Both the position numbers and the translations under genes were made by a program. Positions 13,442 through 64,000 of a DNA stretch of 64,000 nucleotides are shown piece after piece; the first letter of the stretch is position 1; each line of letters begins with the position of its first letter. Below the pieces are notes generated by a model, which was given only the letters and a program-made list of their open reading frames with translations, had not been told where the DNA came from and did not search any database. This DNA comes from a virus, in the IMG/VR virus record IMGVR_UViG_3300025890_000018; one strand, 5' to 3'.

Positions 13442-13443
13442 CG

Positions 13444-21359: not shown

Positions 21360-21946
21360 TGGGAATAGTAAAACGAGCGGCTGATTTAGCATACACATTT
21401 AGATTCATTCGAATGCTCGTATTGGATTGGAAGGAATGGGATGCTTACAAACTTGGCCTCATTGATGAAGAAGGCAAGCGAAACCGAAAAACAAAAATTC
21501 AATCAGACGAACAAAAGTCAGCCTACACACCGTTCATCAGACTCTGTGCAAACATTAAACGTTTGGTATCGAAGCTTCCGGGTGGCGGTAGTAAGCTTGG
21601 TTCTTTTGCTTCTGCTCTTTATCTTATAAAAGAAAAATACAATCTTAAAGATCGCGATCTCGAAAAAATCATAGAAAAATGTGGTGCAGACGTGCTTGAC
21701 ATTATCAATGAAGGGAATGAATGGTTCCTTCTTGATGACGGTTCAATCGCGCCCGGTGTATATAAAATTCGAGAAAATAAATTATTAACTCGCAACTGCG
21801 GTGAAATGGTATGGGCTAAAGATCAAGTACGAATAAGAGAAGAATGTCATTCTATTGGTGACGTATTTGGTATACCGATTTATGAGGCAATCCATATAAA
21901 TACTAATCAAAGCATTTATATAACCACAAACGAGATTTATAAATGA
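21359..21946 (+). CDS. Hypothetical protein
   Basis: A 195-aa ORF with ATGA overlap to the first fibre gene, so probably structural or late. Confidence 0.5.
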   Translation: MGIVKRAADLAYTFRFIRMLVLDWKEWDAYKLGLIDEEGKRNRKTKIQSDEQKSAYTPFIRLCANIKRLVSKLPGGGSKLGSFASALYLIKEKYNLKDRDLEKIIEKCGADVLDIINEGNEWFLLDDGSIAPGVYKIRENKLLTRNCGEMVWAKDQVRIREECHSIGDVFGIPIYEAIHINTNQSIYITTNEIYK

Positions 21947-23723: not shown

Positions 23724-25517
23724 ATGAGTAGTAGAAATAGAGATATAGCACGAATCCTTGGCAAGACTGAGGCAGCTAATCCAAATAATACAAGATTAAA
23801 AGCAGCCGGCGGATCAACAGCCATAGCGGTATATTCATCATTGGATAGTTTACCTACTACTAGTTTAACTGCCGGCGATCAAGCATATGTATCTGCAAAT
23901 AGCCGGCTTTATGTATCAAACGGATCTGGTTGGTATAACGTAGCGATAGTTAATGCTACTCCTACATTATCTCTTAGTTCAACAGGCACCATTGCACTTG
24001 CATCAGATGGTAGTACCACAACTGTAATAAGGCTAACAGGCACCGATTCAGATAACGCAGATGCAAACTTAGTGTATTCAATTGAATCTGGTGGTGACTT
24101 CTTTAAGTTAGCTACAATTGTTCAAGATTCTGCAAAGCAATATACAATAACACCTCGAACTGAGGATTCTGCCACAGCATTAGGATTCGATGGATCAGCA
24201 ACCATAACATTCAAAGCATCAGATGGTGTTAACCAAGCTACTGTACAGAATACTTTTACATTAGCGTTTACTACTGATTGGGCTACAGTTTCTACTACTG
24301 AAGTTGTCCTTACTCCATCTGGTATTGGAAACAGTGATAGATTTGGTTACGATCATTTCGGTCTAAGCACAGATGGTACATATTTAGTAGTTGGCGCGGC
24401 ACAAGAAGACACTACTAATAGTAATCAAGGTAAAGCGTGGGTTTTCAAATATGGTGGTAGTAGTTGGTCCGAAGAAACAACGCTTTTTCCACCATCATCT
24501 GACAATAAAGCAAACCTGAGGTTTGGCACACATGCAGATATTAGTGGTGATGGCAGTGTTGCGATTATTAGCGCTGCGAATTATGGGACCTACACCGGTG
24601 CAGTTTATGTATATACAAGATCTGGTACTACTTGGTCTTATAGAACAAGATTGACTGCATCTGATGCTGCAGACTATGATTCGTTTGGTGGAGAAGCTCA
24701 AGGCCAAGGTGTAGGAATTAGTAAAGATGGAACATATATTATTGTAGGATCTCATCAAGACGATGACGGTGGTAGTAACCGTGGATCTGCTTATGTGTTT
24801 ACTGGCTCAGGTGCTTCATGGTCACAACAACAAAAATTAGCACCATCATATACTAGCGGTAACAGCATTGCATATGGTAATGCTGTAGTTATAAACAATG
24901 ATGGTACTTATTGCGCAATAGCCGCAAAAAATATGAATAAAAACGGTACCAGTACTAACACCGGTGTAGTATTCATTTACACTAGATCTGGTAGCACTTG
25001 GACTGAACAAGCATATGTTTCACCATCTGATGGTGCCGCTTCTGACAATTTTGGATGGCACATTTCAATGAATGGAGCTGGAGATAGATTATTAGTTCAT
25101 TCTAGATTTGACGATGATGGTGGTGATAGTACTGGATCAATTTATGTTTATACAAGATCAGGTAGTACTTGGACACAAGCTGCTAAGCTTACCAAGACTA
25201 GTCCCACTGCATATGATTACTGGGGTAAATGTAGTATAAACGAAACTGGAGATGTGTTTGTTACATTTGGAGATACAGCATCGAACTCTGTAGCAGGGTC
25301 TGGCAAGTTATATGTTTATAAGGATAATTCATCTGGTACCGATGGTACGTCATGGTCGTTAATAAAAACTTTAACTACCGGAGTAAGTGAAACTTGGGGA
25401 CTAGGAAATGACTATGGTACAGTAAAAATGAGTAGAGACACATCGACTATTGTTAATACTGCAGGTATGGCTCCAAATGGTACTCAGCAAGGTAGAGCAT
25501 ATGTATTTAAAGCTTAG
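23724..25517 (+). CDS. Fibre/receptor-binding-like structural protein (paralog 2), FG-GAP-type propeller
   Basis: The N-terminus is MSSRNRDIARILGKTEAANPNN. It has the same N-terminal module and more divergent FG-GAP-like repeats. Confidence 0.65.
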   Translation: MSSRNRDIARILGKTEAANPNNTRLKAAGGSTAIAVYSSLDSLPTTSLTAGDQAYVSANSRLYVSNGSGWYNVAIVNATPTLSLSSTGTIALASDGSTTTVIRLTGTDSDNADANLVYSIESGGDFFKLATIVQDSAKQYTITPRTEDSATALGFDGSATITFKASDGVNQATVQNTFTLAFTTDWATVSTTEVVLTPSGIGNSDRFGYDHFGLSTDGTYLVVGAAQEDTTNSNQGKAWVFKYGGSSWSEETTLFPPSSDNKANLRFGTHADISGDGSVAIISAANYGTYTGAVYVYTRSGTTWSYRTRLTASDAADYDSFGGEAQGQGVGISKDGTYIIVGSHQDDDGGSNRGSAYVFTGSGASWSQQQKLAPSYTSGNSIAYGNAVVINNDGTYCAIAAKNMNKNGTSTNTGVVFIYTRSGSTWTEQAYVSPSDGAASDNFGWHISMNGAGDRLLVHSRFDDDGGDSTGSIYVYTRSGSTWTQAAKLTKTSPTAYDYWGKCSINETGDVFVTFGDTASNSVAGSGKLYVYKDNSSGTDGTSWSLIKTLTTGVSETWGLGNDYGTVKMSRDTSTIVNTAGMAPNGTQQGRAYVFKA

Positions 25518-40802: not shown

Positions 40803-42548
40803 ATGAGTAGAGTACGAGACATAACGAAATTCTTAGAAGAAACACGTAAGACTAATACTAATTTAAAAGCCTTACGTCCTTCTACTACTTCAGTTATTGA
40901 TTCAGCTGCAGTTCTTGTAATGAAGTCTGCATCTGGAATGTCAGTGTTTTCTACACTTGATTCATTACCGGTGACAAGTTTAACTACCGGCCAACAAGCA
41001 TATGTAACTGAAAACTCAAGAATATACATTTCAAATGGTAATGGTTGGTATAACGTAGCAGTAGTTAATGCCACACCAGCATTAACACTAAGTGCATCAG
41101 GAACAATTGCTTTAACTGCTGGATCAGCTACAACTATTACAATGACAGCTACAGATTCAGATAACGCCGATGCAAACTTAGCTTTAACACTTGAATCTGG
41201 TGGAGACTTGTTTAAATTTGCTACGGTATCTCAGGATTCTTCAGTTGTAACTATTACGCCAAGAACTGCAGATTCCGCAACAGCACTAGGATCTGATGGA
41301 TCTGCCACATTGACATTTAAAGCAAGTGACGGTGTTAACCAAGCCACAGTACAAAATACTTTCACAATATCATTTGGTCCAGATTGGTCGGCTACTCCTA
41401 CTGAAACTAAAATAACCGCTTCTGACGCAGCCGCAAATGATAGATTTGCAAGAAGTTTAGCAATCAGCGGTGATGGATCTTATGCAATTTCTGGAGCAAT
41501 ATACGAATCGGCCGGCGGTTCCAATGCTGGCGCAGCTTATATTTTTGTAAAATCTGGTGGAAGTTGGTCTCAACAGCAAAAAATAGTAGCATCTGATGCA
41601 GCAACAGAACAGTGGTTTGGCCAGTCAGTCGCGATAAATTCTGATGGTACATATGCTGTTGTTGGTGCGTTTAAGCACGATCTTTATGGAACAGATGCTG
41701 GAGCGGCATATGTATTTACAAGATCCGGATCAACTTGGACACAACAACAAAGAATAGTAGGATCAACTGCTACTGCTTCTGATAATTTTGGTGCATCTGT
41801 AGCAATTAATAGTGATGGTACTTATATTGCAGTTGGCGCACAAACAGAAAATTCTGTTTTTATATTTACACGATCAGGTTCTACTTGGTCAGAACAAGCG
41901 AAATGCCAATCATCAGATGGACCATATAATACGGCGTTTGGTTTAACAGTAGAAATTAATAGTGATGGTACTTATTTTATTACCGGCGATTCGAATAAAT
42001 CCGGCGGTGGGTCGGCTTATGTCTTTACAAGATCAGGCACCAGTTGGTCACAACAAGCTAAATTAGTCTCAACAGATCTTCAAGCGTCTGATTATTTTGG
42101 TTATGATGTTTCATTAAATTCTGATGCTACATATGCTGTTGTTGGATCAGCTTTTGAAGACACTGGTCAATCAAATGCAGGTTCTGCATATGTATTTACA
42201 AGATCCGGATCAACTTGGACACAACAAGCAAAAATTCAAGCAAGTGATGTAACAGGAAGCGCTTTTTTTGGTGCTGGTGCATCCATGAATAGTAGCGGCG
42301 ATCATGTTATTATCGGTGCTTCTGGATTAAACAATAGAATTGGGTCTGTGTATATTTTTGAAAGATCTGGTTCCACTTGGACACAAAAAGTAAAGCTAAG
42401 AGGATCAGATGCCACCACGACTTATTCTGATGGTGGCTCTACAAACGTGTCAATCACTAGTGATGGAAGCAGTGTTATTTACGGTCATTACTACCAAACA
42501 GTGAGTAGTACTGCCGGTGTTGGCGCTGCATACATTTTCGAAGTTTGA
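40803..42548 (+). CDS. Fibre/receptor-binding-like structural protein (paralog 3), FG-GAP-type propeller
   Basis: The N-terminus is MSRVRDITKFLEETRKTN. Its N-terminal module is very similar at the DNA level to 21943..23697. There are about 7 FG-GAP-like repeats. Confidence 0.65.
   Translation: MSRVRDITKFLEETRKTNTNLKALRPSTTSVIDSAAVLVMKSASGMSVFSTLDSLPVTSLTTGQQAYVTENSRIYISNGNGWYNVAVVNATPALTLSASGTIALTAGSATTITMTATDSDNADANLALTLESGGDLFKFATVSQDSSVVTITPRTADSATALGSDGSATLTFKASDGVNQATVQNTFTISFGPDWSATPTETKITASDAAANDRFARSLAISGDGSYAISGAIYESAGGSNAGAAYIFVKSGGSWSQQQKIVASDAATEQWFGQSVAINSDGTYAVVGAFKHDLYGTDAGAAYVFTRSGSTWTQQQRIVGSTATASDNFGASVAINSDGTYIAVGAQTENSVFIFTRSGSTWSEQAKCQSSDGPYNTAFGLTVEINSDGTYFITGDSNKSGGGSAYVFTRSGTSWSQQAKLVSTDLQASDYFGYDVSLNSDATYAVVGSAFEDTGQSNAGSAYVFTRSGSTWTQQAKIQASDVTGSAFFGAGASMNSSGDHVIIGASGLNNRIGSVYIFERSGSTWTQKVKLRGSDATTTYSDGGSTNVSITSDGSSVIYGHYYQTVSSTAGVGAAYIFEV
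41067..41410 (+). repeat. Paralogous DNA block shared with 22168..22511
   Basis: See the partner entry. Weaker copies lie in 23.9-24.3 kb and 42.8-43.1 kb. Confidence 0.8.
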
Positions 42549-54869: not shown

Positions 54870-54898
54870 TGTACATTTGCTGAAAACTGTGGTATAAT
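54870..54898 (+). promoter_or_regulatory. Sigma70-type early promoter cassette
   Basis: -35 TGTACA (54870..54875), 17-nt spacer, TGgTATAAT (TATAAT at 54893..54898). The identical 22-mer occupies 54887..54908. The palindrome TTAAATGCATTTAA lies just upstream. Confidence 0.65.
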
Positions 54899-54931: not shown

Positions 54932-55114
54932 ATGGAATATATTACTACACAGGTTCTTAAAATGTCTCAATTAGAAGCATTCCGGAATGAATATACAGCA
55001 TTAACAGATGTTGTAAAACCCGGTGCAGATATTTTAGACAGAATTGGTTACCTTGAACAAACATTCGATCTAGTCGATATGGGTGAAATCCTTATTAACA
55101 TGAGGAGCAAATAA
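54932..55114 (+). CDS. Hypothetical protein
   Basis: A 60-aa ORF with GAGGAG upstream, the first gene after an early promoter. Confidence 0.5.
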   Translation: MEYITTQVLKMSQLEAFRNEYTALTDVVKPGADILDRIGYLEQTFDLVDMGEILINMRSK

Positions 55115-55650
55115 TGACAGTATATCTTGATATGGATGGAGTCATTGCAGACTTCTTTAGTGGCATCGAATTAAAATACGGTGTAGATCATTGGAAGTCT
55201 ATTCAAGATCGTGAAATCAAATTCAAAGAACTTGCTAACACAAACTTCTTTTACACACTTCCAATCTTTAGAGAAGATCGTGGACCTCGGCGAGCAGGTC
55301 CTAGTATATCCTGTGAAATCATAAGATTTGTAAAAGAAATATCCAATGGCGATTGGGGAATTTGTTCTTCACCATTACGTGGTGATACAATGAATTCATC
55401 TTATTGGAAACGCAGATGGTTAGAAGATAAAGATTATATGCCACCTTTAGTTGAGAACATGATCTTTACTGGTAACAAACATAAGTATGCTTGGAATGCA
55501 CTAACTCGTAAGCCAAACATTTTAGTTGATGATAAACCTGAAAACATCAAGCGTTGGATAGAAGCTGGAGGTATTGGTATTCGCTTCCAAGCAAATGAAG
55601 ATGATCTAGAAGAATACCTATTTGTAGAACTGGAGAAAGCATGCCAATAA
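55114..55650 (+). CDS. 5'(3')-deoxyribonucleotidase (NT5C-type HAD phosphatase)
   Basis: 'VYLDMDGVIADF' is HAD motif I (D-x-D) in its NT5C form. 'LVDDKPENI' is the distal Asp motif. Confidence 0.7.
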   Translation: MTVYLDMDGVIADFFSGIELKYGVDHWKSIQDREIKFKELANTNFFYTLPIFREDRGPRRAGPSISCEIIRFVKEISNGDWGICSSPLRGDTMNSSYWKRRWLEDKDYMPPLVENMIFTGNKHKYAWNALTRKPNILVDDKPENIKRWIEAGGIGIRFQANEDDLEEYLFVELEKACQ

Positions 55651-55880
55651 GCACAATACTTAATATGCGTACAGAATTTGAAGATATAACTGAAAATTAT
55701 AATATGAACGGGCATGCTGGTAGTAGTATAAATAGTCTTAATTGGTTTGTTGAGAATGGACATAAGTCCAACTCACTTCGTAATGGATTTGATGATGCAA
55801 TGGAAATAGCAAACAAAATCCTAGCGGAGGCTAATCAATGGCAAAAACTCTCGAAAAAGGATCATTATTCGAGCATTTAG
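55641..55880 (+). CDS. Hypothetical protein
   Basis: A 79-aa ORF that overlaps its neighbours on both sides. Confidence 0.4.
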   Translation: MPISTILNMRTEFEDITENYNMNGHAGSSINSLNWFVENGHKSNSLRNGFDDAMEIANKILAEANQWQKLSKKDHYSSI

Positions 55881-56197
55881 ATGCGGATGGTGATGGCATT
55901 ATTACAGATGATGAAATGGCAAGAGCAAAAGAAATAGCAGAGTTCGAACATAAGCGAGCTATGCAAAATAATGAAGATGCAAAGGAAGATCAAATTAGAC
56001 GCATGGCGTGGTTTGCGCTATGGGGTATGCTTTTATATCCTGTCGGTATTTTCTGCGCAGATATGGTCGGCTACGAAACAACTGGACAATTACTTGCAGA
56101 TATCGCGCCTACATACTTTGTCGCAATCTCAGCTCTAGTCGGTGCTTTCTTTGGTGCACAAGCGTACCAGAAAACAAAGAAGAATGGCACTAGTTAA
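55838..56197 (+). CDS. EF-hand-containing membrane protein
   Basis: GGAGG is upstream. 'DADGDGIITDDE' is a canonical 12-residue EF-hand loop. Two C-terminal hydrophobic helices follow ('MAWFALWGMLLYPVGIF', 'YFVAISALVGAFFGA'). Confidence 0.55.
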   Translation: MAKTLEKGSLFEHLDADGDGIITDDEMARAKEIAEFEHKRAMQNNEDAKEDQIRRMAWFALWGMLLYPVGIFCADMVGYETTGQLLADIAPTYFVAISALVGAFFGAQAYQKTKKNGTS

Positions 56198-56403
56198 TGT
56201 ACCAAGCCCTAGTGTGGGTGTGTTTAATGTCAAATCCAGCAGAGTGCATAACTTTAGAAGATCAAAGAGGCCCATACAAGACTTATGAAAGATGTGAATC
56301 CCGTGCTTATGAAATGTCTCGTGCAGTTCATATACATATGAAGGGATACAAACCAAAGAGGTGGTCATGCCGTGGTTTAGCAAAGGGCCAGCTTACTAAA
56401 TAA
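56197..56403 (+). CDS. Small Cys-containing hypothetical protein
   Basis: A 68-aa ORF whose start overlaps the upstream stop. Confidence 0.45.
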   Translation: MYQALVWVCLMSNPAECITLEDQRGPYKTYERCESRAYEMSRAVHIHMKGYKPKRWSCRGLAKGQLTK

Positions 56404-56416
56404 TTGAAAGTATATT

Positions 56417-57181
56417 ATGCGTAATTTAGTCTTCCAATATTATATTCCTTATGAGTCTTTTGATGCTGATATGGGTGGAGTGAATATGCCTGAATGGGCA
56501 AAGGCTGGACAAAGATCTGCTATGGCATATGCTGATGCATGTGGTGCTGAATACATGCTTAGCCACGATAGATATTTTACACACCTTGATCCTCGTTTAG
56601 ATTCGCTCCGGTTATTTTATGATTCGCAGTTTGAACAATACGATAATATCTTTTGCTTAGATTTAGATATGCTTATCTCTAGTAAAGATAATGTATTCAT
56701 TCGTGACATTCAAGATGTTGCAATGGTACATGAATATGGTGTGCATACCGGTGGACCTGCAGGATGGTTGCGCAATGTAATGGATAAGCCTCTACATGAA
56801 AGAGGTGTTATTGCATACGGTAAACATTTATTTGGCCAAGACTGGATGTTTCCTAAATCAACTCGTTATCCAGATGAAAGGTTCCGTTATCTTAATGGAG
56901 GCTTTCAATTGTGGAGTAAAGAAGGTAGAGCTAAAGCCAAAGAGCACTTTACTTCTGTAGATGACTATGTCCTTCATACTCGATATACAGAACAAATGTA
57001 TGTCAATCTTCAACTATCACAACCCGTTTTTAATGTAACCGAGTTTAGTACAACTTGGAATCGCATGCCATATCAATGGCGTGGTAAACCTGACGGTAAA
57101 CTCAATCACTTCTTGGCTCGTACTAAATTTGAAATGCCAAGACTAGAACATACGGAGTTAAGTATATGGCAACCTTCTTAG
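56417..57181 (+). CDS. Nucleotide-sugar glycosyltransferase (GT-A, DxD) paralog 1
   Basis: 'IFCLDLDMLI' is a DxD motif in a GT8-like context. It is paralogous in layout to 58123..58809 and 59816..60694. Confidence 0.55.
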   Translation: MRNLVFQYYIPYESFDADMGGVNMPEWAKAGQRSAMAYADACGAEYMLSHDRYFTHLDPRLDSLRLFYDSQFEQYDNIFCLDLDMLISSKDNVFIRDIQDVAMVHEYGVHTGGPAGWLRNVMDKPLHERGVIAYGKHLFGQDWMFPKSTRYPDERFRYLNGGFQLWSKEGRAKAKEHFTSVDDYVLHTRYTEQMYVNLQLSQPVFNVTEFSTTWNRMPYQWRGKPDGKLNHFLARTKFEMPRLEHTELSIWQPS

Positions 57182-57771
57182 AAATTGCTGGTGAAGCAAG
57201 GCGTGGAATTAACTGGGAAATAGTAAATGGTTTCCGTACAGATAAAACCATGGATGCTGAAATATGGGATATGAGAGATCTTCCTATGAAAAAATCTGCA
57301 GCTTCGTATGATGGAATTTATTCTGAACATTTTATTGAGCATATACATAAGTACCAAGGAATCAATTTCTTTAAGGAAGCATTTAGATTGTTAAAGCCGG
57401 GTGGAACTCTTCGTACTGTATGGCCTAAGTATGAAATTATTGAATGGCTTGTTGGTCCAGAAGATTTAAGTAATGATACTTTTGTAAACCATTACTACCA
57501 AGTATATGTAAAAAAACACAAGTTTCCTGAAGAAGGTAATGAACATAGAAGACCACAAGAGCAAGTTGCATTAGGATTATTACATCAAGGTGGTGAGCAT
57601 AAGTATCTTTGGGGTGAAGCAGAAATGATTACTACATTAAAAGATCTTGGTTTTTCTAGTGTACAAACTTGGCCGTATGGTGTTAGTGGTAGAGCAGATT
57701 TTAATGGAATTGAAAAGCCTGATGTTATTAGGGCTGCACATTCTGGTGTAGTGGAAGCAACCAAATGGTAA
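57166..57771 (+). CDS. SAM-dependent methyltransferase-like protein
   Basis: 'YDGIYSEHFIEHI...EAFRLLKPGGTL' matches the post-motif-II/III region of class I methyltransferases. Motif I is degenerate. Confidence 0.5.
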   Translation: MATFLEIAGEARRGINWEIVNGFRTDKTMDAEIWDMRDLPMKKSAASYDGIYSEHFIEHIHKYQGINFFKEAFRLLKPGGTLRTVWPKYEIIEWLVGPEDLSNDTFVNHYYQVYVKKHKFPEEGNEHRRPQEQVALGLLHQGGEHKYLWGEAEMITTLKDLGFSSVQTWPYGVSGRADFNGIEKPDVIRAAHSGVVEATKW

Positions 57772-58151
57772 CTATAATTATCGATTGTACTAAGTCTCAT
57801 TATAAGTTTCCTGAGTACTGGAAACCATTGCAGCTAAAGCATGCTAAAATAGAGTTTATTTTTAATGAGCATTCAATCTTATATGCAATAAAAAAAGCAA
57901 GCAATAAACATGTATTTGTTACTTCACCAAATTTAATACCGACATATGAAACAATGGTTAAGCTAGAAACATTGCGGGAAAATACTATGTTAGCTCCGCA
58001 AAATCATATTGGTATAAGTACTAACTCAATTACACCTGTTAGCTATGAAAAAGATAAGTGCTTATCAATGGATGAAACCTTTAGTATGAATTCATATATA
58101 GATAAATTCAATCCAGAAATAATTGAAGAAGGAAGTATGTATAGTGTCTAA
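57765..58151 (+). CDS. Hypothetical protein
   Basis: A 128-aa ORF overlapping both neighbours within the glycosyltransferase operon. Confidence 0.45.
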   Translation: MVTIIIDCTKSHYKFPEYWKPLQLKHAKIEFIFNEHSILYAIKKASNKHVFVTSPNLIPTYETMVKLETLRENTMLAPQNHIGISTNSITPVSYEKDKCLSMDETFSMNSYIDKFNPEIIEEGSMYSV

Positions 58152-58809
58152 TATAATTCTACAACATTTTGATGGTGAATTGCGAGAACTGGATCATTTA
58201 TCAATTGAAAACATGAAGCAGTATGCTCATACACACGGTGCTGAATACCAGCTAGTTAGGGGTAAACCATTTAGGGAACATCTGACGGGTGCATGTCAGA
58301 AGGTGCATATGTTATCAGATCATTATGATCAATATGATCAGGTGCTTATGGTTGATATTGATATGTTTGCACCAAAAGGTATGTTTACAAATGTGTTCGG
58401 AGTTTCTGGTATTGGTCTATATGCTGGCACTCAACAAATGTTACATCGTAAAATAGCAAACACTGCCGGCGGTAGCATGCTTTATCCTTACTGGGGCGGA
58501 GCAATATACAAAATGGATCTTAAAACTCGAATGATTTTAAGAGAACAGTTAGGTGGTGATGAGTCTTGGATGGATAAATTTAATGAAGCATATAAGTTTG
58601 AGGATGAAGGTATTATGCACATCCTTGCTAAGAAAGCTAACTTCCAACCTGAAGATGCATATATGCATCAAAAATGGTGTCAGTGTTCTTTCTTACCTAA
58701 TCCCGAAAAAGCTGGATTTATTCATGTGAGAACAAAGATTACACCACAAGGACCTAAGAAAGAAAAGATTGAAAACTATTATGATCTTAAAGTAAAAGGT
58801 ATCCTATGA
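58123..58809 (+). CDS. Nucleotide-sugar glycosyltransferase (GT-A, DxD) paralog 2
   Basis: 'VLMVDIDMFA' is a DxD motif. The start may be ATG 58123 or a downstream codon. Confidence 0.5.
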   Translation: MKKEVCIVSNIILQHFDGELRELDHLSIENMKQYAHTHGAEYQLVRGKPFREHLTGACQKVHMLSDHYDQYDQVLMVDIDMFAPKGMFTNVFGVSGIGLYAGTQQMLHRKIANTAGGSMLYPYWGGAIYKMDLKTRMILREQLGGDESWMDKFNEAYKFEDEGIMHILAKKANFQPEDAYMHQKWCQCSFLPNPEKAGFIHVRTKITPQGPKKEKIENYYDLKVKGIL

Positions 58810-59816
58810 ACATATTAGTTGTGGGAGCCGGTTTTGCTGGTGCTGTAGTTGCACATGAATTAGCCAATGCTGGACATAAGATTCAAGTCATTGAGAAACG
58901 CAACCACATTGCTGGTAATGCATATGACTACACTAACAAGCACGGCATCCGCATTCACAAATATGGACCACATTTATTCCATACAAACAATAAAAAAGTT
59001 TATGACTGGGTTACGCAGTTTGGTGAATGGGTTGAGTATAGACATAAAGTTAAAGCGATGCTAAGCACTGGCCAGTATGTTACTCTTCCAGTCAATAGTG
59101 AAACCAAAGAAATCGTTGGCGAAGAAAATATTATTAGCACGTTCTATGCACCATACACATATAAAATGTGGGGAAAAACTATAGAAGAACTCGATCCATC
59201 TATCATTAAAAGAGTTGCAATAAGAGATGATGATAACGAAGAGTACTTTCCAAATGACGAGTTTCAGGCTTTACCTAAAGATGGTTATGAAAAAGTCTTT
59301 AAGCAGATTTTAAATCATGAAAACATAACAGTCGAATTAAATAAACCTTTTAAAAAATACATGGAAAGTGAATATGATCATGTATTCAATTCAATGGCGA
59401 TTGATGAGTATTATGATTATGAGTTCGGTGATCTACCATATCGCTCTATCAAATTCCATAATGTAGATCTACCATTGCCAAAACTATTACCGGCCGCTGT
59501 AGTTAACTTTACACACGATGGACCATACACTCGAATGACAGAGTGGAAAAACATGCCGGCACATGGTGTTAATGATGTAATGACTTCTGTAACATATGAA
59601 GAACCATGTGACTATAAAGATAATAACCATGAGCGATACTATCCAGTTAAAGATATAGATGGTAGTAATAGAGACATATATAATAAGTATAAGAACATAA
59701 CAAAAGAAAACATGACATTCATAGGAAGATGCGGTATGTACGTATATGTTGATATGCACCAAGCTATAAGTTCTTCTCTTGCTACAACTGAAAAATTTAT
59801 TAAGGAAAACACATAA
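58806..59816 (+). CDS. glf: UDP-galactopyranose mutase
   Basis: 'ILVVGAGFAGAVVAHELA' is an FAD Rossmann motif. 'IEKRNHIAGNAYD...IHKYGPHLFHT' is the characteristic Glf block. ATGA overlap with the upstream gene. Confidence 0.8.
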   Translation: MNILVVGAGFAGAVVAHELANAGHKIQVIEKRNHIAGNAYDYTNKHGIRIHKYGPHLFHTNNKKVYDWVTQFGEWVEYRHKVKAMLSTGQYVTLPVNSETKEIVGEENIISTFYAPYTYKMWGKTIEELDPSIIKRVAIRDDDNEEYFPNDEFQALPKDGYEKVFKQILNHENITVELNKPFKKYMESEYDHVFNSMAIDEYYDYEFGDLPYRSIKFHNVDLPLPKLLPAAVVNFTHDGPYTRMTEWKNMPAHGVNDVMTSVTYEEPCDYKDNNHERYYPVKDIDGSNRDIYNKYKNITKENMTFIGRCGMYVYVDMHQAISSSLATTEKFIKENT

Positions 59817-60694
59817 TGAAAAATATAATTTACCAATACTGGAAAGGCGATTTAAAGCCCGGTGTTAAATATAGCTGTAAGCTTATGAAAGAATATGCTA
59901 AACGTATTGGTGTAGAATATAGATTTGATCATAATAAAACGATTGCCGGCAAGGTAGTTAATGTTCCAATCTATTATGAACCAGCCAATCCGTTAGTATC
60001 TGATGACTTTGATGAGTATGACAATGTTATGCTATGTGATGTTGATGTATTTCCAACTGAAGGATTATCTGATAACATTTTTGATTTATTAGATGGAGAA
60101 GATGCCGGTATTTGCACAGAACCAAAGCAGCCTTACTTTAGAACCATATATGCATCTGGTGGTATCACTAGTGACATTGATAAACGTTGGGCAAAGGTGT
60201 GTAAAGATAACTGGGGTGTAGATTATCCTGTCGACAAATTGGATAGACCAGAAGTATTTAACACCGGTGTTGTAGTTATCTCTAAAGCTGGTTTGAAGAA
60301 GATGAAAACAGAGTGGCCAACATTTCAAGAATATGTAAACCAAATGCGTGAATTCCCTAATTTTTATAGACTATTCCAAGATTATTTTTCAGCGTTTATT
60401 CACTTACCTAATTTTAATTTAAAGCGATTGCCTAATGAATGGAACTGCTATATGCATAAAGTAGGTTCACATCCAAACGCAAAGATCGGTGATAATAGAC
60501 CAGAGAATGCTAAGCTAGTTCATATTATGTTTCGCACCGCTGATGACTGGTCAACTGATGTTCTTTGGAGAATCACTAATAAACCGATAGCCGAATGGAA
60601 TTTACATCTACACAAAGAGTGGCCAAACGAGCCATCGAAAACAGATAATAGTTTACTAGGTCAACTAAAGGATATTTCTAATGTTAACAGCTGA
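59816..60694 (+). CDS. Nucleotide-sugar glycosyltransferase (GT-A, DxD) paralog 3
   Basis: 'VMLCDVDVFP' is a DxD motif, and 'FNTGVVVISK' is typical of GT8-like folds. Confidence 0.55.
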   Translation: MKNIIYQYWKGDLKPGVKYSCKLMKEYAKRIGVEYRFDHNKTIAGKVVNVPIYYEPANPLVSDDFDEYDNVMLCDVDVFPTEGLSDNIFDLLDGEDAGICTEPKQPYFRTIYASGGITSDIDKRWAKVCKDNWGVDYPVDKLDRPEVFNTGVVVISKAGLKKMKTEWPTFQEYVNQMREFPNFYRLFQDYFSAFIHLPNFNLKRLPNEWNCYMHKVGSHPNAKIGDNRPENAKLVHIMFRTADDWSTDVLWRITNKPIAEWNLHLHKEWPNEPSKTDNSLLGQLKDISNVNS

Positions 60695-61271
60695 AATAGA
60701 TCATGTAGAATCAGTTGAAGAATTTTATAAAGAAATTCGTACTCAGCAAGAATTGTTTCATGGTGATCATTATTGCGCAATGCATGATGCAATTCAAAAG
60801 TTTATGAAAGACTGTAGGTCGTATAAAGAACTTGGTACACACCAAGGTGCTAGTGCTGCAGCTGCAATGTTAGGTGAACATAAGCCAAAGTATATGGAAT
60901 TGATTGATATTGATCACGTTAAATATCGTAAGACTCTTAAGAGATTAGCAGAACCATATTGTAAAGAACACGGCATTGAACTTGTAGTACGTGAAGCAGA
61001 TTCTGGTGGTCTTGGTTCTATGTCCAATAAAGCAGTGGATATGCTTATGATTGATTCAATTCATAAAAGACCACATATGGAAAAAGAATTGCAGATTCAC
61101 GGGCAAATGGTTACTAAATATATCGTAGCCCACGATACTAGTAAAGCACAATCAAGTAATTTAATTGAGCTTTATGAATGTTTAGTTAATTTTTGTATAG
61201 ACAATCCATCTTGGAAAGTCGAAGAACGAGGTGTTGAAAACGTTGGATACACCGTATTGAAAAGGAGTTAA
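60681..61271 (+). CDS. Class I SAM-dependent methyltransferase-like protein
   Basis: 'YKELGTHQGASAAAA' is motif I-like (E-x-G-x-x-x-G). 'MLMIDSIH' is an acidic/hydrophobic strand, as in O-methyltransferase family 3-like proteins. Confidence 0.5.
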   Translation: MLTAEIDHVESVEEFYKEIRTQQELFHGDHYCAMHDAIQKFMKDCRSYKELGTHQGASAAAAMLGEHKPKYMELIDIDHVKYRKTLKRLAEPYCKEHGIELVVREADSGGLGSMSNKAVDMLMIDSIHKRPHMEKELQIHGQMVTKYIVAHDTSKAQSSNLIELYECLVNFCIDNPSWKVEERGVENVGYTVLKRS

Positions 61272-61274
61272 ATA

Positions 61275-61511
61275 ATGGAAGCACTACTTATTATCGCAGC
61301 ATTGGCGGCCGGAGCACATTATCTTCAAGATGATGATGTGCCTAATAACGCAATCCATAGTTCACAGACTACAAAAAATATTTCAACTTTTAAAGCAGAT
61401 ATCAATCATGAATTAAGCTTAGCACAGATTGATTGGAGTAAAGCTGGCAACTTTAAAGTTGGTGATTCACCTGAAACTGGTGTACAGTGGGTATTTTTAA
61501 CAGGTAAGTAA
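61275..61511 (+). CDS. Small protein with an N-terminal hydrophobic segment
   Basis: A 78-aa ORF. 'MEALLIIAALAAGAHYL' could be a signal or anchor sequence. Confidence 0.45.
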   Translation: MEALLIIAALAAGAHYLQDDDVPNNAIHSSQTTKNISTFKADINHELSLAQIDWSKAGNFKVGDSPETGVQWVFLTGK

Positions 61512-61512
61512 A

Positions 61513-62208
61513 ATGCAAGCGTATGCAATCGTAATTAAAGATCACGAAGTATCTGAGACTGGTTATAACAATCTAAAAGTTTCTTCTGAAAAATTTAAAA
61601 ATTCTTTTAAGATTAGAAGGTTCGATGCTATTACACCTAAGATGGCAAGAACTGTTATGTCTGGTAATGGTCTTAAGTGGAAGTACCCTTGGGAAGGAAA
61701 AGAAACAGATTTGAAAACCGGTTTAATTAAATCGGCATATCAAACTGCTAACAAGAATACGAGGATTGCATGTGCATTAAGTCACTGGTTATTGTGGCAT
61801 AAATGTTTTACAGAAGATACACCTCTTCTTATATTAGAACACGATGCGTTGTTTATTGAAAAGCTAGAACATAGTTCAATACTAAAAAGCGAATTTGATA
61901 TTATAGGAATTAATAGTCCAGCAGCCGCAACACGTAAAGCTCATGAATTTCATGATATGGTTCAAGCCAAAAGATCATTGATCCAACCGGTTCCTACAGT
62001 TGATGAATTTAATGTGCCACAAGGATTGGCTGGAAATAGCGCATATATAATTAAACCAGCTGGAGCAAAGTCTATACTAGATGCTGCTCGAGAACATGGG
62101 CTTTGGCCTAATGATGCATTAATGTGTAAGCAAATTATTTCAAACCTCGGTGTGACTAAGACTTATTATACTCGAGTTCAAGGTCTACCATCAACAACGG
62201 TAAGTTAA
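61513..62208 (+). CDS. Glycosyltransferase family 25-like (LPS/LOS-type) protein, copy 1
   Basis: 'MQAYAIVIKDH', 'ACALSHWLLWHKC' and 'LILEHDALF' match the GT25 layout (the H-x-x-x-W and E-D/H-D-A blocks). Confidence 0.65.
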   Translation: MQAYAIVIKDHEVSETGYNNLKVSSEKFKNSFKIRRFDAITPKMARTVMSGNGLKWKYPWEGKETDLKTGLIKSAYQTANKNTRIACALSHWLLWHKCFTEDTPLLILEHDALFIEKLEHSSILKSEFDIIGINSPAAATRKAHEFHDMVQAKRSLIQPVPTVDEFNVPQGLAGNSAYIIKPAGAKSILDAAREHGLWPNDALMCKQIISNLGVTKTYYTRVQGLPSTTVS

Positions 62209-62859
62209 ATGAAAGCATTTGTAATAACAATTAAAGATAATGAAAGATCGGTGAAATATGCTCAACGGTGTATTGAATCAGGTAAAAAACACGGGCTTGA
62301 AATTAAACAATTTAATGCGTTTACTCCTAAAGATAATCCTGAAAAATTTTTAGAGTCTCGTGGAATTAATCCAAATAGATTTAAAGAAAAATATTCAAGG
62401 CCAGAAAATTGTATGTCTGCTTTTATTTCTCATTATTCATGTTGGGAAATATCAAGAGATATGAATGAAACAGTAGTTATTTTTGAACATGATGCTCTTA
62501 TAACTGGACAAGTTCCGGTTGATGTTGAGTTTGATAAAGTCATGACATTTTCTAAACCTTCTTATGGAAAATACAATACTCCACTTAAACTTGGTGTAGA
62601 TGGACTAATTCAAAAACAATACTTTGGTGGTGCTCATGGTTACATCGTTAAACCAGAAGGTGCTAAAGAATTAGTTACCAAAGCGGTGTCACATGCAGGA
62701 CCTACGGATATATACCTCAATACGCAAAATTTCCCTTGGTTGCAAGAATATTATCCGTGGGTCTGCATGGCGGCTGATTCATTTTCTACAATACAAAATG
62801 AAACCGGTTGTTTAGCTAAACATAATTATAAAATAGGATATAAGATAATCGATGCCTAA
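62209..62859 (+). CDS. Glycosyltransferase family 25-like protein, copy 2
   Basis: 'MKAFVITIKDNERS', 'CMSAFISHYSCWE' and 'VIFEHDALI'. It is a tandem paralog of 61513..62208. Confidence 0.65.
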   Translation: MKAFVITIKDNERSVKYAQRCIESGKKHGLEIKQFNAFTPKDNPEKFLESRGINPNRFKEKYSRPENCMSAFISHYSCWEISRDMNETVVIFEHDALITGQVPVDVEFDKVMTFSKPSYGKYNTPLKLGVDGLIQKQYFGGAHGYIVKPEGAKELVTKAVSHAGPTDIYLNTQNFPWLQEYYPWVCMAADSFSTIQNETGCLAKHNYKIGYKIIDA

Positions 62860-63532
62860 AATGCCAGATAATTTATTCCTAACAGGATGTGATGAAAAAA
62901 CTGAATGGCAGCTGCCATGGTTTTTAGAAAACTATTTTAAACATAACAATACGCCTATTGCCATTGGCAATTTCGGTATGTCTGATGAGATGGTGCGTTG
63001 GTGTGAAACTAAAAGTCATGCTTTTTGCTTAATGCATCATGATCAAGTTGGTCAGTTTGAAAAAGCTTGGTTCTTGAAACCAGCTGCAATGTTAAAAGCA
63101 CCGGGTAAAAAAGTAGTATGGCTTGACACAGATTGCCAAGTAATGTCAAATCTAGATCATATCTTTCGAATCCTTGTACCAAATAAACTTAATATGGTAA
63201 TGGATAGACCTTGGCTTAAGCGTAGGAAAGAAGAGTGGTTTAATTCAGGTGTTGTAGGATTTATTGGTAAGCCAGAAATTCTACATAAATGGGCTAAGCA
63301 AGTTGAAGATACACCTAACGTTGGTGATCAAGAAGTATTACACTCGATGCTTGATCCTCTTAATAGACAGATATATATTCATGAGTTACCGAATAAATGG
63401 AATTGGTTAAGGCTACAAATTGAACATGATAATGAAGATTCAAATGATAAGAAAATTATGCACTGGACTGGTGCCAAAGGTAATGATAGGATTAAAGGGT
63501 TGATGAAGATTAAGGAGGTTATTCGTGCCTAG
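62852..63532 (+). CDS. Glycosyltransferase (GT-A, DxD)-like protein
   Basis: 'VVWLDTDCQV' is a DxD motif, and 'FNSGVVGF' is GT8-like. Confidence 0.5.
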   Translation: MPKMPDNLFLTGCDEKTEWQLPWFLENYFKHNNTPIAIGNFGMSDEMVRWCETKSHAFCLMHHDQVGQFEKAWFLKPAAMLKAPGKKVVWLDTDCQVMSNLDHIFRILVPNKLNMVMDRPWLKRRKEEWFNSGVVGFIGKPEILHKWAKQVEDTPNVGDQEVLHSMLDPLNRQIYIHELPNKWNWLRLQIEHDNEDSNDKKIMHWTGAKGNDRIKGLMKIKEVIRA

Positions 63533-64000
63533 AACAGTACACATTATTGGTAATGGCGATTCAGCTGTATTATATCATGAAGAGCCACGTAAAGGTTTAA
63601 AGCTTACATGTAACCTACCACCATTTGCCGTGCCGGATGCATATGCCACATGTATGGTTGACTTTAAGATGATGCATACTATTAATACCGGTGTTATCGA
63701 TGTTCCCGGTGAATGGATTCTTGGTGCTCGTCCAAAGTTGTATATGGAAAAACATCCAATCTATTACACCAAACGTGCTCCACAAATTAAACAATTTTAT
63801 ACCAAACTTCCAAAATATGCTGCAAATTATACAGACTTTAATTGTGGTCATATGGCAACATACTTTTCACTTGAGCATCTTAAAGCTGAAGTGATCCATA
63901 TGTATGGATTTGATTCTATCTTTGATTTTAATTTAAGATCAAGTACAGATTTTTATATTACTTCTGATAGAGGCAATATGAATAATAATCGGTTGACTAA
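63525..64000 (+). CDS. Partial ORF (3' end beyond window), possibly a glycosyltransferase or accessory-factor-like protein
   Basis: Absent from the ORF track because it runs off the edge. TAAGGAGG lies 6 nt upstream of GTG 63525, and the frame is stop-free to position 64000 (VPRTVHIIGNGDSAVLYHEEPRKG...). 'HIIGNGDS' resembles the N-terminal IIGNGPS block of some bacterial sialyl/glycosyltransferase-like families. Confidence 0.5.
   Translation, partial: MPRTVHIIGNGDSAVLYHEEPRKGLKLTCNLPPFAVPDAYATCMVDFKMMHTINTGVIDVPGEWILGARPKLYMEKHPIYYTKRAPQIKQFYTKLPKYAANYTDFNCGHMATYFSLEHLKAEVIHMYGFDSIFDFNLRSSTDFYITSDRGNMNNNRLT

Follow-up and report, generated by a model that had tools for sequence, protein, structure and literature searches.

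The locus described here raises the question of which glycan could be assembled by a dense set of virus-encoded glycosyltransferases (GTs), and onto which acceptor; multi-gene GT clusters as such are already known in marine phages. The window, that is, the whole stretch of 64,000 nt analysed, belongs to a T4-like marine myovirus with portal, sheath and terminase. Its capsid protein is 67% identical to the counterpart in the Kyanoviridae phage C48C1 and 58% identical to those of HTVC008M, Mosig and Melnitz, in agreement with a previous sequence-only reading which had described the island as phage-borne.

Layout and extent of the island

The island is formed by twelve + strand ORFs, all of them found where the earlier reading had placed them in a tight operon, with overlaps of 1–29 nt or gaps of 0–3 nt between neighbours. 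It comprises six supported GTs (three DxD GT-A paralogs, two GT25 and one GT8), a UDP-galactopyranose mutase (Glf), two methyltransferase-like genes, two small genes of unknown function and g12, a candidate only, which had been counted as the last of about seven GTs. All the enzymes are under purifying selection (dN/dS 0.03–0.2), and the catalytic motifs, on whose conservation across homologs the initial interpretation had been made to depend, are invariant (DxD; EHD in GT25).

Upstream, an early-type sigma70-like promoter with an extended -10 (TGTACATTTGCTGAAAACTGTGGTATAAT; 54870..54898, + strand), assigned by consensus match only, is likely to be the start of the operon containing the island. 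It is one of a near-identical family within the window (7307, 8063, 51590, 53170 and 54870) and is kept in the same place in four related loci (L004, L005, L006 and L012), while no terminator-like site was found on the + strand between it and the island. The intervening operon genes (54932..56403, +) are a 60-aa ORF, u2, which is weakly NT5C-like, u3, u4 and u5; u4, with an EF-hand-like loop and two TM-like segments, is the sole membrane-type protein of the operon, and every related lineage has u1-u3-u4, in this order, ahead of the island. A late-promoter motif (TATAAATA) at 55727 is conserved in close relatives.

The island had been thought to continue past the right edge of the window. In fact, inspection of the sequence beyond 64000 through the relatives revealed that only the final 64 codons of g12 remain, so that the island ends about 195 nt beyond the edge; past this point lie small phage ORFs, then a gp33-like coactivator, gp32 and baseplate genes. 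Neither a flippase nor a polymerase nor a priming enzyme lies between the island promoter and gp32, and no protein in that interval exceeds two TM-like segments. Since g12 is the end in the relatives and polytopic membrane proteins are missing as far as gp32, the absence of export machinery, formerly noted for the window, holds for the entire island. This bears directly on undecaprenyl phosphate (Und-P)-linked O-antigen or capsule synthesis (Wzx/Wzy- or ABC-transporter-dependent) with export genes beyond the window. Glf, GT8 enzymes and methyltransferases are also found in O-antigen clusters, and the window alone does end at 64000; nevertheless, a priming transferase, Wzx, Wzy, Wzz, a ligase and an ABC transporter were not found in any variant examined. 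Such synthesis is thus highly improbable and, for the locus itself, effectively refuted by a complete island without export or priming genes.

Conserved core and exchangeable cassette

Comparison of more than 300 related loci showed that the island is built of a conserved core and an exchangeable cassette. The 3' core, GT25-GT25-GT8-g12 (g09 to g12), is present in every variant and its divergence keeps step with that of the backbone genes, while the 5' part differs and recombines, even between near-identical phages: among those with 93–96% identical flanks, Glf was exchanged, g06 was exchanged and a methyltransferase-like gene was inserted. Other variants also contain GT9-like genes.

The cassette of the window includes the three DxD GT-A paralogs already noted from the sequence, a kinship borne out by hhalign (g04 with g06, 98.4%; g04 with g01, 96.6%; g06 with g01 and g04, 98.4%) and by invariant DxD motifs. 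The first, g01 (56417..57181, +), lies in the variable 5' region and has no Pfam match, its assignment to the GT-A fold coming from its invariant DLD motif and from an AF2 model (pLDDT 88.3) which matched retaining GT-A enzymes at E 2e-8. The best Foldseek match in the PDB was PBCV-1 A64R (2p6w, E 2e-8), followed by LARGE1, GT6, LgtC and XXT1. All of its 208 homologs are metagenomic, the family having been seen only in viral and metagenomic data; 185,579 GTDB species genomes yielded no relative at the sensitivity of the search used. The dN/dS of g01 is 0.07–0.09. The second, g04 (58123..58809, +), has an invariant DID motif and a mechanically set TTG start, the true start being uncertain; its position differs among other island variants. 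The third, g06 (59816..60694, +), is weakly GT8-like (E 0.004, below the cut-off), its DxD being invariant in 21 sequences.

The identification of g05 (58806..59816, +) as Glf, which converts UDP-galactopyranose into UDP-galactofuranose, was upheld by a match to PF03275 across the full profile (E 1.3e-51), together with NAD_binding_8; the TIGR00031 score of 283.8 bits falls just below the equivalog cut-off of 303.75. Its GxGxxG motif is invariant in 59 homologs, and at least 93 viral relatives (65–99% identity) were found. Within the island g06 always adjoins this swappable gene, and in near-identical phages lacking Glf, where an unrelated 397-aa gene takes its place, a 42%-identical allele stands in for g06. 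From this co-variation we infer that g06 is a galactofuranosyltransferase. The notion that the glycan is assembled independently of the host was an overstatement, however, as the UDP-Glc/Gal 4-epimerase and sugar-activating genes are absent from the window, the epimerase of the relatives being encoded at a locus separate from the island.

Both methyltransferase-like genes keep conserved motifs, although the calls are weaker than for the other enzymes. In g02 (57166..57771, +), of class I type, the Methyltransf_11 match (E 8.9e-6) covers the C-terminal half alone (profile positions 49–93 of 95), a further match being phrog_6636 'methyltransferase', and the motif-I region, LEIAAExxRG, is conserved yet non-canonical. 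This gene is a mosaic allele, with 52–54% identity where its neighbours show 86–93%. The second, g07 (60681..61271, +), resembles Methyltransf_24 below the cut-off (E 1.7e-4; 22.9 bits against 26.3) and CmcI-type sugar O-methyltransferases (RMNT_CmcI, E 0.017), with invariant ELGxHQG and IDSxH motifs and a dN/dS of 0.06. The two small lineage-specific proteins gave no family match: g03 (128 aa; 57765..58151, +; dN/dS 0.11–0.13), of unknown function, occurs in 5 loci only and is replaced by c40 in other variants, and g08 (78 aa; 61275..61511, +), restricted to 4 loci and under relaxed constraint (dN/dS 0.40–0.43), has a hydrophobic N-terminus scoring under the TM threshold.

The core opens with the tandem GT25 pair, g09 (61513..62208, +; PF01755, E 1.3e-14) and g10 (62209..62859, +; E 1.4e-11), previously called GT25-like and now assigned by these matches and a mutual hhalign probability of 99.4%; the EHD motif is invariant in each, and g09 was found in all island variants, L294–L299 and L333 included. 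The next DxD enzyme, g11 (62852..63532, +), passes the GT8 cut-off (PF01501, E 2.3e-5; 24.6 against 24.3 bits) and both Asp of its DTD motif are invariant; no kinship to g01, g04 or g06 was detectable by hhalign. The last gene, g12 (63525..64000, +), cut by the window edge, is a real ORF of 222 aa in relatives (full-length copy at 2031–2699 of L001), its identity as a GT not being established: none of its approximately 1,210 homologs carries a Pfam domain, nor does g12 itself, and its AF2 model (pLDDT 84) has no significant PDB fold match, with a weak likeness to MptE-like/DUF115 proteins (E 0.01–0.02) and hits in BFVD to uncharacterised viral proteins (E 2e-11). It belongs to a virus-wide uncharacterised family, the one member common to all related islands, and its relatives lie on phage-like contigs only. 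A homolog (39%) closes the syntenic island of C48C1, another lies within a GT/methyltransferase cluster of DSL-LC06, and g12-type GT/methyltransferase modules adjoin packaging and structural genes in an unrelated 30-kb phage. The fold is also found in the eukaryote-infecting giant viruses Pyramimonas orientalis virus and ChoanoV1.

The proposed glycan and its candidate acceptors

The gene set would be best explained by a soluble, self-contained glycan assembly line, working in the cytoplasm without a lipid carrier. The two GT25 enzymes, the GT8-like enzyme and g12 would build, in a presumed order of action, an invariant inner oligosaccharide, to which the recombining cassette, composed in the window of three GT-A paralogs, Glf and two methyltransferase-like enzymes, would add lineage-specific outer residues and caps. 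Glf would draw on UDP-galactopyranose from the host or the phage, g06 may transfer the resulting galactofuranose (Galf), and g02 and g07 may carry out the SAM-dependent O-methylation of sugars. The methylated, Galf-containing oligosaccharide initially proposed is, in this sense, a plausible product. As regards the acceptor, virion proteins and the host envelope, both named at the outset, are still candidates, while a third had been missed, DNA, which must be considered because relatives make hydroxymethylcytosine, carry a homolog of the T4 alpha-glucosyltransferase (AGT) and have Glf in a DNA-modification slot.

Tentatively, the narrowly preferred reading is the carrier-free cytoplasmic glycosylation of the phage's own virion proteins, which would be modified before or during assembly. 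Glycosylation of own virion proteins occurs in chloroviruses, mimiviruses and some mycobacteriophages, and all the characterised viral systems known to us which combine several GTs with methyltransferases decorate virion proteins. A phage-owned acceptor would be favoured over a host one by the lack of cellular relatives of the g01 family and g12, as far as searches of limited sensitivity can establish a restriction to viruses, and by the co-divergence of the core with the backbone; it would also be favoured by the g12 fold in viruses of eukaryotes, whose hosts have no LPS, and by the g12-type module beside structural genes in the 30-kb phage. Weak support may come from the late-promoter motif and from Ser/Thr-rich fibre-type proteins as candidate acceptors. 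Against virion proteins, the operon is early-type and lies amid replication and nucleotide-metabolism genes rather than structural genes, the capsid protein of the window lacks a Ser/Thr-rich tail like that of mycobacteriophage glycosylation targets, and we know of no T4-like phage with glycosylated virions.

Doubtful in itself, though nearly as likely as the virion reading, is the extension of host lipid A-core (LOS-type) by soluble GTs on the cytoplasmic face of the inner membrane, with export of the altered LOS by the host MsbA and Lpt systems. GT25, GT8 and, in other variants, GT9-like enzymes are typical LOS/LPS-core families, and a flippase, a polymerase and an Und-P priming enzyme, all absent here, are dispensable for LOS-type assembly. 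Moreover, the early-type promoter suits early host takeover, the conserved two-TM u4, which every lineage has directly 5' of the island, could anchor the enzymes at the membrane, and an outer part that varies around a conserved core resembles LOS organisation. If true, superinfection exclusion, receptor masking or the sparing of progeny from adsorption to debris would follow. Nevertheless, the island families are without close relatives in cells and diverge together with the phage, rather than looking host-derived, g12-like folds occur in viruses of eukaryotes, and host assignments from MAGs are inconsistent, suggesting mis-binning. To our knowledge, no lytic phage rebuilds LOS by a multi-GT pathway. 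The envelope is the default published reading for the GT clusters of pelagimyophages and cyanophage P-SSM2 (PMC7029224; PMC1079782), itself an inference. In addition, the repurposing of LPS-type GT folds for DNA has been demonstrated (10.1101/2023.12.21.572611), so that family names do not identify the acceptor, and the names GT25 and GT8 are not evidence for an LPS acceptor.

DNA hypermodification, in which the island would lengthen the sugar put on 5-hydroxymethylcytosine by a separate DNA glycosyltransferase, is unlikely, though not far behind the two preceding readings; if it took place, a complex Galf-containing, methylated DNA glycan would block modification-dependent nucleases. Island-bearing genomes encode an ortholog of T4 gp42, the dCMP hydroxymethylase (profile against PDB 1B49, E 4e-89), and a full-length AGT homolog (1XV5, E 9e-36); together with an epimerase, both occupy the position of beta-gt in T4, on the contig that also carries the island (L312, L205). 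The closest Glf relatives (65–72% identity) occupy this slot as c2-Glf-epimerase in sister lineages, the c2-Glf pair follows a TET/JBP dioxygenase in C48C1, and c2 and Glf are adjacent in Aeromonas phage Aes012. Phage Glf has also been proposed as a supplier for DNA glycosylation in RL38J1, a phage with up to tri-hexosyl cytidine in its DNA (PMC13326640). GTs adding secondary sugars to 5hmC are GT8-like with A64R as top PDB match, like g01 (10.1101/2023.12.21.572611), and the A64R-like fold of g01 is consequently non-discriminating, the same best match being reported for enzymes extending DNA-linked glycans. Furthermore, the soluble enzymes, early operon and replication region agree with a DNA acceptor, and cassette swapping suits an arms race with sugar-specific nucleases. 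However, the same B-type island (87% identical GT) accompanies either type of slot, AGT-like or c2-Glf, and so cannot depend on one primary DNA sugar. None of the 119 sampled gp42 loci had island genes within the stretch fetched, Glf travels in the DNA context with c2 and not with an island GT, and the gp42 region is known from relatives outside the window's own sublineage. Six or seven GTs and two methyltransferases would be far beyond known DNA glycans (10.1101/2023.12.21.572611; PMC13326640), and a heptasaccharide on each hydroxymethylcytosine would, by our own estimate, add about 60% to the DNA mass, which would be hard for head-full packaging. Both the independent assortment of island type and slot and this excess of enzymes would favour virion proteins over DNA.

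Relation to known systems

PBCV-1 (A064R and partners) has a viral, cytoplasmic, carrier-independent set of several GTs with sugar methyltransferase activity, and the GT domain of its A64R gave the best match for g01 in the PDB (E 2e-8), a modest likeness (TM 0.53–0.63) common to many retaining GT-A enzymes. It is, however, a eukaryotic virus with N-linked glycans on Vp54. The bacterial LOS outer-core loci (Neisseria lgt, Haemophilus lic2/lgtC, Campylobacter LOS classes) likewise have GT25 and GT8 enzymes in tandem, which work one after another in the cytoplasm and need no polymerase; cassette exchange gives rise to their classes, and they include CstII-type enzymes. These loci are chromosomal and have a defined lipid A-Kdo-Hep acceptor, whereas the genes of the window are viral and without close cellular homologs. 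Mycobacteriophages of the Che8, Corndog and Myrna type have GT operons, some with methyltransferases, which glycosylate capsid and tail proteins without export machinery. Such operons hold 2–4 GTs near structural genes and target Ser/Thr-rich C-terminal extensions, whereas the operon of the window is early-type with six or seven GTs, and the capsid protein has no such tail; virion glycosylation has been mentioned as an inference for a cluster F1 phage (PMC11256854).

The DNA sugar-hypermodification clusters (T4 alpha/beta-GT, 5mYOX/ThyS-associated GT clusters, Rhizobium phage RL38J1) come from the same type of phage lineage, and related genomes carry gp42 and the AGT homolog; in published systems, Glf and GT8-like or A64R-like secondary GTs serve DNA glycans (PMC13326640; 10.1101/2023.12.21.572611). 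The known DNA glycans differ in having one to three sugars and no O-methylation, and the island in having no AGT-, BGT- or c2-type enzyme and lying more than 8 kb from the slot. Closest in setting are the clusters of pelagimyophages and P-SSM2, which are multi-gene, belong to lytic T4-like marine myoviruses, have prominent GT8 and variable content, and whose function is putative (PMC7029224; PMC1079782). Those of pelagimyophages lie largely in the tail-fibre 'host recognition cluster', while the island lies in the replication region upstream of gp33/gp32, and those of P-SSM2 differ in holding sugar epimerase and synthase genes. A g12 homolog was not found in any cultured cyanomyovirus or pelagimyophage, and the island is set apart from both by its fixed GT25-GT25-GT8-g12 core, its Glf and its families, seen only in viral and metagenomic data.

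Genes of the island and their limits

The genome is that of a T4-like marine myovirus, with genes for terminase, sheath, portal, scaffold, baseplate, tail-fibre and ribonucleotide reductase, and a capsid protein 67% identical to that of the Kyanoviridae phage C48C1 and around 58% identical to those of pelagimyophages and the OM43 phage Melnitz. C48C1 was the nearest phage found when a cultured close relative was sought, and no mention of it was found in the literature. Between 56417 and the window edge, the island consists of twelve + strand ORFs, neighbours overlapping by 1-29 nt or lying 0-3 nt apart, and each of the contiguous ORFs described in the sequence-only reading was present. The clear Glf expected at 58806 was confirmed by a match to PF03275 (E 1.3e-51, profile positions 2-203 of 203), together with an N-terminal NAD_binding_8 domain (E 1.5e-19). 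Against TIGR00031 this 336-aa protein scored 283.8 bits in two stretches of the 378-position profile, under the equivalog cut-off of 303.75; by Pfam it is classed in the UDP-galactopyranose mutase family, narrowly below equivalog level.

The two tandem genes g09 (61513) and g10 (62209), taken earlier as GT25-like, exceed the PF01755 gathering cut-off of 24 with 55.0 bits (E 1e-14) and 45.1 bits (E 1e-11), respectively. The GT25 family also includes protein (collagen) galactosyltransferases, and its acceptor, LOS/LPS core or other, cannot be read from sequence. The genes g01 (56417), g04 (58123) and g06 (59816) are mutually related (hhalign probability 96.6-98.4%), none of them with a usable Pfam match: g06 reaches 17.1 bits against PF01501 (GT8), under the cut-off of 24.3, g01 and g04 give no match to that profile, and a PDB sequence-profile search with this family returned chance-level matches only. 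The AlphaFold model of g01 (pLDDT 88) matches retaining GT-A enzymes with E values of 2e-8 to 1e-6, with the capsid glycosyltransferase A64R of PBCV-1 at the top and LARGE1, GT6 enzymes, LgtC and XXT1 after it. A further glycosyltransferase, g11 (62852), barely passes the PF01501 cut-off (24.6 bits). When the catalytic residues were checked across homologs, the DxD of the four GT-A families (g01, g04, g06 and g11), the EHD of both GT25 families and the GxGxxG of Glf (59 homologs) were all invariant, which, with the hhalign and fold results, agrees with the earlier description of three DxD paralogs and one additional DxD enzyme. Of the two proposed SAM-methyltransferase-like genes, g02 (57166) passes Methyltransf_11 (26.7 bits, cut-off 21.2), although over the C-terminal half of the profile only and with an atypical motif I, and g07 (60681), in which ELGxHQG is invariant, stays below Methyltransf_24 (22.9 bits, cut-off 26.3); both are weaker assignments than those above. 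PHROGs and NCBIfam provided names for Glf and one methyltransferase alone among the island proteins.

The ORF cut by the window edge at 63525 (g12) is a real gene, 222 aa long in relatives, although its identity as a glycosyltransferase remains that of a candidate. Its GNGxS and GFDS motifs resemble, as we take it, those of the GT42 (CstII)/DUF115-Maf/MptE-like superfamily, and one homolog was labelled sialyltransferase by its depositor. Nevertheless, membership was not sustained, as no characterised member was matched significantly in sequence or in fold: Pfam, PHROG and NCBIfam gave no match, the PDB sequence-profile search gave chance-level matches only, and Foldseek of the confident model against the PDB gave a best E of 0.07. 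Against BFVD, the fold matches uncharacterised viral proteins strongly and MptE-like/DUF115 proteins weakly (E 0.01-0.02). No g12 homolog was found in cultured cyanomyoviruses and pelagimyophages, and one lies within a different glycosyltransferase/methyltransferase cluster of an unrelated 30-kb phage. By family and fold, the count of supported glycosyltransferases is six plus g12 as a candidate, instead of the seven or so first proposed. The dN/dS values of all enzyme genes (0.03-0.2) are similar to those of the flanking phage genes, indicating that these genes are functional and not decaying cargo.

The island had been thought to continue past the right edge. In fact, in the L001 contig, whose proteins are around 97-99% identical to those of the window, and in six ENA contigs (L208-L213), g12 is the last island gene, only 64 codons of it lying beyond 64000, and is followed by small phage ORFs and then by a gp33-like coactivator, gp32 and baseplate genes on the opposite strand. 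From the likely promoter to gp32 there is no protein with more than two TM-like segments, and no priming (Und-P) transferase, flippase/ABC transporter, polymerase or chain-length regulator was found there or in the island. Since the island end is known from relatives and no polytopic protein occurs, the absence of export genes, noticed earlier within the window alone, is a property of the whole system and not an edge artefact, and a Wzx/Wzy- or ABC-dependent O-antigen or capsule locus was discarded.

The likely operon promoter, of the extended -10 sigma70 type, lies at 54870-54898 and is kept in close relatives. It belongs to a near-identical early-type family with an extended -10 (T[GT]TACA-N-GAAAACTGTGGTATAAT; 7307, 8063, 51590, 53170 and 54870). 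Total counts of sigma70-type promoters and terminators in the window were at chance level, and among the promoter predictions this recurrent family alone is meaningful. T4-type late motifs, TATAAATA, precede structural genes at distances of 13-80 nt (11378, 19513, 21895, 25560, 30290, 38102 and 42565), and another, also conserved, is found at 55727 within the upstream gene u3.

Elsewhere in the window, the left end (584-6379) is low in GC (0.27-0.33) and carries a gene for a class-III aminotransferase (2188-3240) as well as three for 2OG oxygenases resembling Asp/Asn beta-hydroxylases (584, 3807 and 5879 on the - strand). The 'aminotransferase' and 'cytidyltransferase' of this end were considered as further sugar-pathway genes, which was not supported, the former being of class III, beside Asp/Asn-hydroxylase-like oxygenases, and the latter holding a generic CTP_transf-like domain. 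Speculatively, protein hydroxylases and GT25 enzymes in one phage recall hydroxylysine-linked glycosylation. The stretch 12215-15221, ahead of the structural module, encodes a DUF6267 protein (E 1.5e-100) and another of 407 aa whose N-terminus is cytidylyltransferase-like.

Conserved core and exchanged cassettes

At least 93 relatives of Glf, with 65-99% identity, were found in IMG/VR, and the anatomy of the island was established from about 20 syntenic loci, seven mis-binned MAG contigs and gp41-centred loci. In the syntenic loci, u1 (PD-(D/E)XK), u3 and u4 always lie 5' of the island. Throughout the loci compared, the island consists of g09-g10-g11-g12 (GT25-GT25-GT8-g12), an invariant core at the 3' end, and of a 5' region that varies. 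Phages with flanks 93-96% identical in nucleotide sequence to those of the window differ in the centre: Glf is swapped for an unrelated 397-aa gene, an allele of 42% identity stands in for g06 and an extra methyltransferase-like gene is inserted; moreover, g02 is mosaic, with 52-54% identity amid neighbours of about 90%. As g06 is a constant neighbour of Glf and the two are swapped jointly, we infer that g06 is a galactofuranosyltransferase. The Glf replacement (L208 5152-6345) has no Pfam match and shows a C-terminal, nucleotidyltransferase-like GS...DxD pattern, and might thus activate a different sugar donor.

Other islands differ further. C48C1 holds a syntenic island upstream of gp33/gp32 with only g12 in common with the window (L293 1982-9660; OQ984149.1 95704-103382), where the g12 homolog is accompanied by a GT-A enzyme, a carbamoyltransferase of NolO/NodU-like type and a radical-SAM protein (CxxxCxxC); this suggests that glycans of this kind also receive other tailoring, such as carbamoylation. 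A second 5' region, termed B-type (L292 136-3818, - strand; also L323, L325, L328 and L331), contains genes for a GT-A enzyme like g01/g06, a methyltransferase like g07 and a protein whose GSDSGMMHVA motif is GT9-like. It also encodes a RuBisCO-like protein of 380 aa, unexpected in a phage glycan island and judged by eye from its GGADFIKEDE motif.

In the cellular genomes searched, no relatives of g01 were found, and g12 matched GTDB MAG contigs of 3-44 kb (L294-L300) from seven unrelated taxa: Balneola, Bacteroidetes, Opitutia, Rhodobacteraceae, Flavobacteriaceae, Verrucomicrobiales and Melainabacteria. All of them present the gene order of this phage family (u1-u3-u4, island, d1, gp32 region), which almost certainly marks them as mis-binned phage contigs; for this reason they were rejected as a clue to the host.

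Taken jointly, a cytoplasmic assembly line is quite probable, in which a glycan would be built sequentially and without a carrier, with a conserved core and a swappable cap, the Glf product would feed g06, and SAM-dependent enzymes would cap the glycan. The earlier proposal of a phage-borne pathway free of export was borne out, given the T4-like genome and the lack of export genes from promoter to gp32; that the glycan is made independently of the host was an overstatement.

The DNA-modification slot of related phages

About 60 other Glf loci have the order gp42, dCMP deaminase, c2 (a 369-aa protein of no recognised family), Glf, an NAD-dependent epimerase, a C5-methylase-like gene and then UvsX, gp41 and ThyX (for example L014 860-4840, L037 6471-10790 and L331). 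The gp42 ortholog of these loci is a dCMP hydroxymethylase by profile comparison with PDB 1B49 (E 4e-89), and it retains the Asp employed in PMC13326640 to tell hydroxymethylases from 5-hydroxy-dCMP synthases. Since the T4 order is 42, beta-gt, uvsX, 40, 41, the slot occupied by c2 and Glf is the positional equivalent of the T4 DNA glucosyltransferase gene. Among 119 sampled gp42 loci, this slot contains either c2 (about 11, 8 with Glf) or a homolog of the T4 alpha-glucosyltransferase, AGT (about 20), and never both. The AGT homolog matches PDB 1XV5 over its full length (E 9e-36), and an NAD-dependent epimerase always follows it (L204 3581-4855, - strand; L312 5229-6506). At least three cassette types occupy the slot, and L322 carries a 3.1-kb unassigned insert. 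With no PDB or Pfam match, c2 was not recognisable as an AGT/BGT-type enzyme. From the gp42-c2-Glf slot one would predict that the DNA bears galactofuranosyl-hydroxymethylcytosine and that c2 is a new DNA glycosyltransferase. The pair reaches far beyond the marine group: in C48C1 (L084 6513-9960; OQ984149.1 49583-53030) it directly follows a TET/JBP dioxygenase (PF12851, E 3e-17), and in Aeromonas phage Aes012 (L207 7001-9183) a c2-like gene (28% identity) lies directly 3' of Glf, these genes being annotated in the records as hypothetical or putative phage proteins.

The gp42 ortholog is also present in island-bearing relatives (L312, L204 and L205). In the 64 kb of the window no precursor pathway for modified pyrimidines (ThyA-like hydroxymethylase, TET/JBP) was found, the window sublineage was absent among the matches listed in a gp42 motif scan, and a gp42-query scan did not return its 123-kb contig IMGVR_UViG_3300017748_000002. 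In L312 the order is gp42, AGT homolog, epimerase, UvsX, gp41, ThyX, u1-u4, g01-g02-c40-Glf-g06-g07, c40 being the replacement of g03, and L205 and L019 are arranged likewise. As island-bearing phages thus belong to a hydroxymethylcytosine lineage, DNA becomes a serious third candidate acceptor, missed in the sequence-only reading, whose two candidates, virion proteins and the host envelope, both stand. Under this explanation, the T4-type DNA glucosyltransferase homolog would attach a sugar to 5-hydroxymethylcytosine, and the island would elaborate that sugar. Phage RL38J1 DNA has been reported to contain mono- to tri-hexosyl cytidines, its Glf being proposed as the UDP-Galf source (PMC13326640), and the glycosyltransferases responsible for secondary sugars on 5hmC are GT8-like and have PBCV-1 A64R as top PDB match (bioRxiv 10.1101/2023.12.21.572611). 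Just this profile was obtained for g01; neither similarity to A64R nor family names of LPS type speak for or against a DNA acceptor.

Nevertheless, several facts make elaboration of a DNA sugar unlikely. More than 8 kb separate the island from the slot, and the stretches fetched for the 119 gp42 loci hold no island gene. Island type and slot type assort independently, AGT slots occurring with the Glf-containing A-type island (L312) and with the B-type one (L328), and c2-Glf slots with B-type islands (L316, L329, L331 and L333), a B-type glycosyltransferase being 87% identical across both slot types; extension of a primary sugar should track that sugar. Clustering or co-inheritance of the island with a base-modifying enzyme and a primary DNA glycosyltransferase was rejected on these same grounds: distance, absence from the stretches fetched and independent assortment. 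Moreover, six or seven glycosyltransferases and two methyltransferases exceed any known DNA glycan, and a heptasaccharide per hydroxymethylcytosine would, by our estimate, add around 60% to the DNA mass. The virion DNA would have to bear a branched or extended, Galf-containing, O-methylated oligosaccharide, its outer residues cassette-swapped against sugar-specific nucleases, an improbable modification that, if true, would be far more complex than any known on DNA. In the 64 kb of the window no precursor pathway for modified pyrimidines (ThyA-like hydroxymethylase, TET/JBP) was found, the window sublineage was absent among the matches listed in a gp42 motif scan, and a gp42-query scan did not return its 123-kb contig IMGVR_UViG_3300017748_000002.

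Possible virion and envelope acceptors, and known clusters

Decoration of virion proteins is a tentative possibility, ranked slightly ahead of host LOS and then of DNA. To our knowledge, every characterised viral system of multiple glycosyltransferases and methyltransferases without a lipid carrier decorates virions, and the island families appear to be restricted to viruses. Ser/Thr-rich fibre-type proteins are also on hand, which is a permissive feature only: three large FG-GAP-repeat proteins with 24-27% Ser+Thr are encoded among the structural genes (21943-23697, 23724-25517 and 40803-42548). These are probably fibre or decoration proteins, and could serve as glycan acceptors or as lectin-like adhesins. 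On the other hand, the genomic position is early, the promoter is of early type, and a Ser/Thr-rich tail, looked for in the capsid protein as a signature of virion glycosylation, is absent.

That same early-type promoter would suit modification of host LOS or envelope, a rather doubtful reading by which the GT25, GT8 and GT9-like enzymes, classic LOS-core families, would act in an LOS-type assembly needing no export genes, and for which the conserved small membrane protein u4, ahead of the island in all lineages, also speaks. It fits less well with the lack of close cellular relatives of g01 and g12, with a core whose divergence keeps step with that of backbone genes, and with the presence of g12-like folds in viruses of eukaryotes. 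The remaining probability falls to other acceptors.

In abundant marine myoviruses, few kinds of unexplained cargo are commoner than glycosyltransferase clusters, which are routinely called 'LPS genes' from their family names alone. The locus described makes this problem tractable: the pathway is defined and complete, lacks export and keeps a conserved core, the cassette swaps between near-identical phages are natural isogenic controls, and the lineage also holds a separate, recognisable DNA-glycosylation module, so that the virion, envelope and DNA readings predict distinct, testable outcomes. If true, each would be a first, whether T4-like glycosylated virions, LOS rebuilt by a lytic phage or oligosaccharide-bearing DNA. 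Furthermore, the movement of Glf between slot and island underlines the need for caution in assigning function from one marker gene.

Glycosyltransferase clusters of marine T4-like phages were already known, the usual reading being modification of host O-chain/LPS (PMC7029224; PMC1079782). The present island differs from them in sitting in the replication region, upstream of gp32, in combining its fixed GT25-GT25-GT8-g12 core with cassette exchange, in consisting of families which appear virus-restricted, and in coexisting, and exchanging Glf, with a separate DNA-glycosylation slot.
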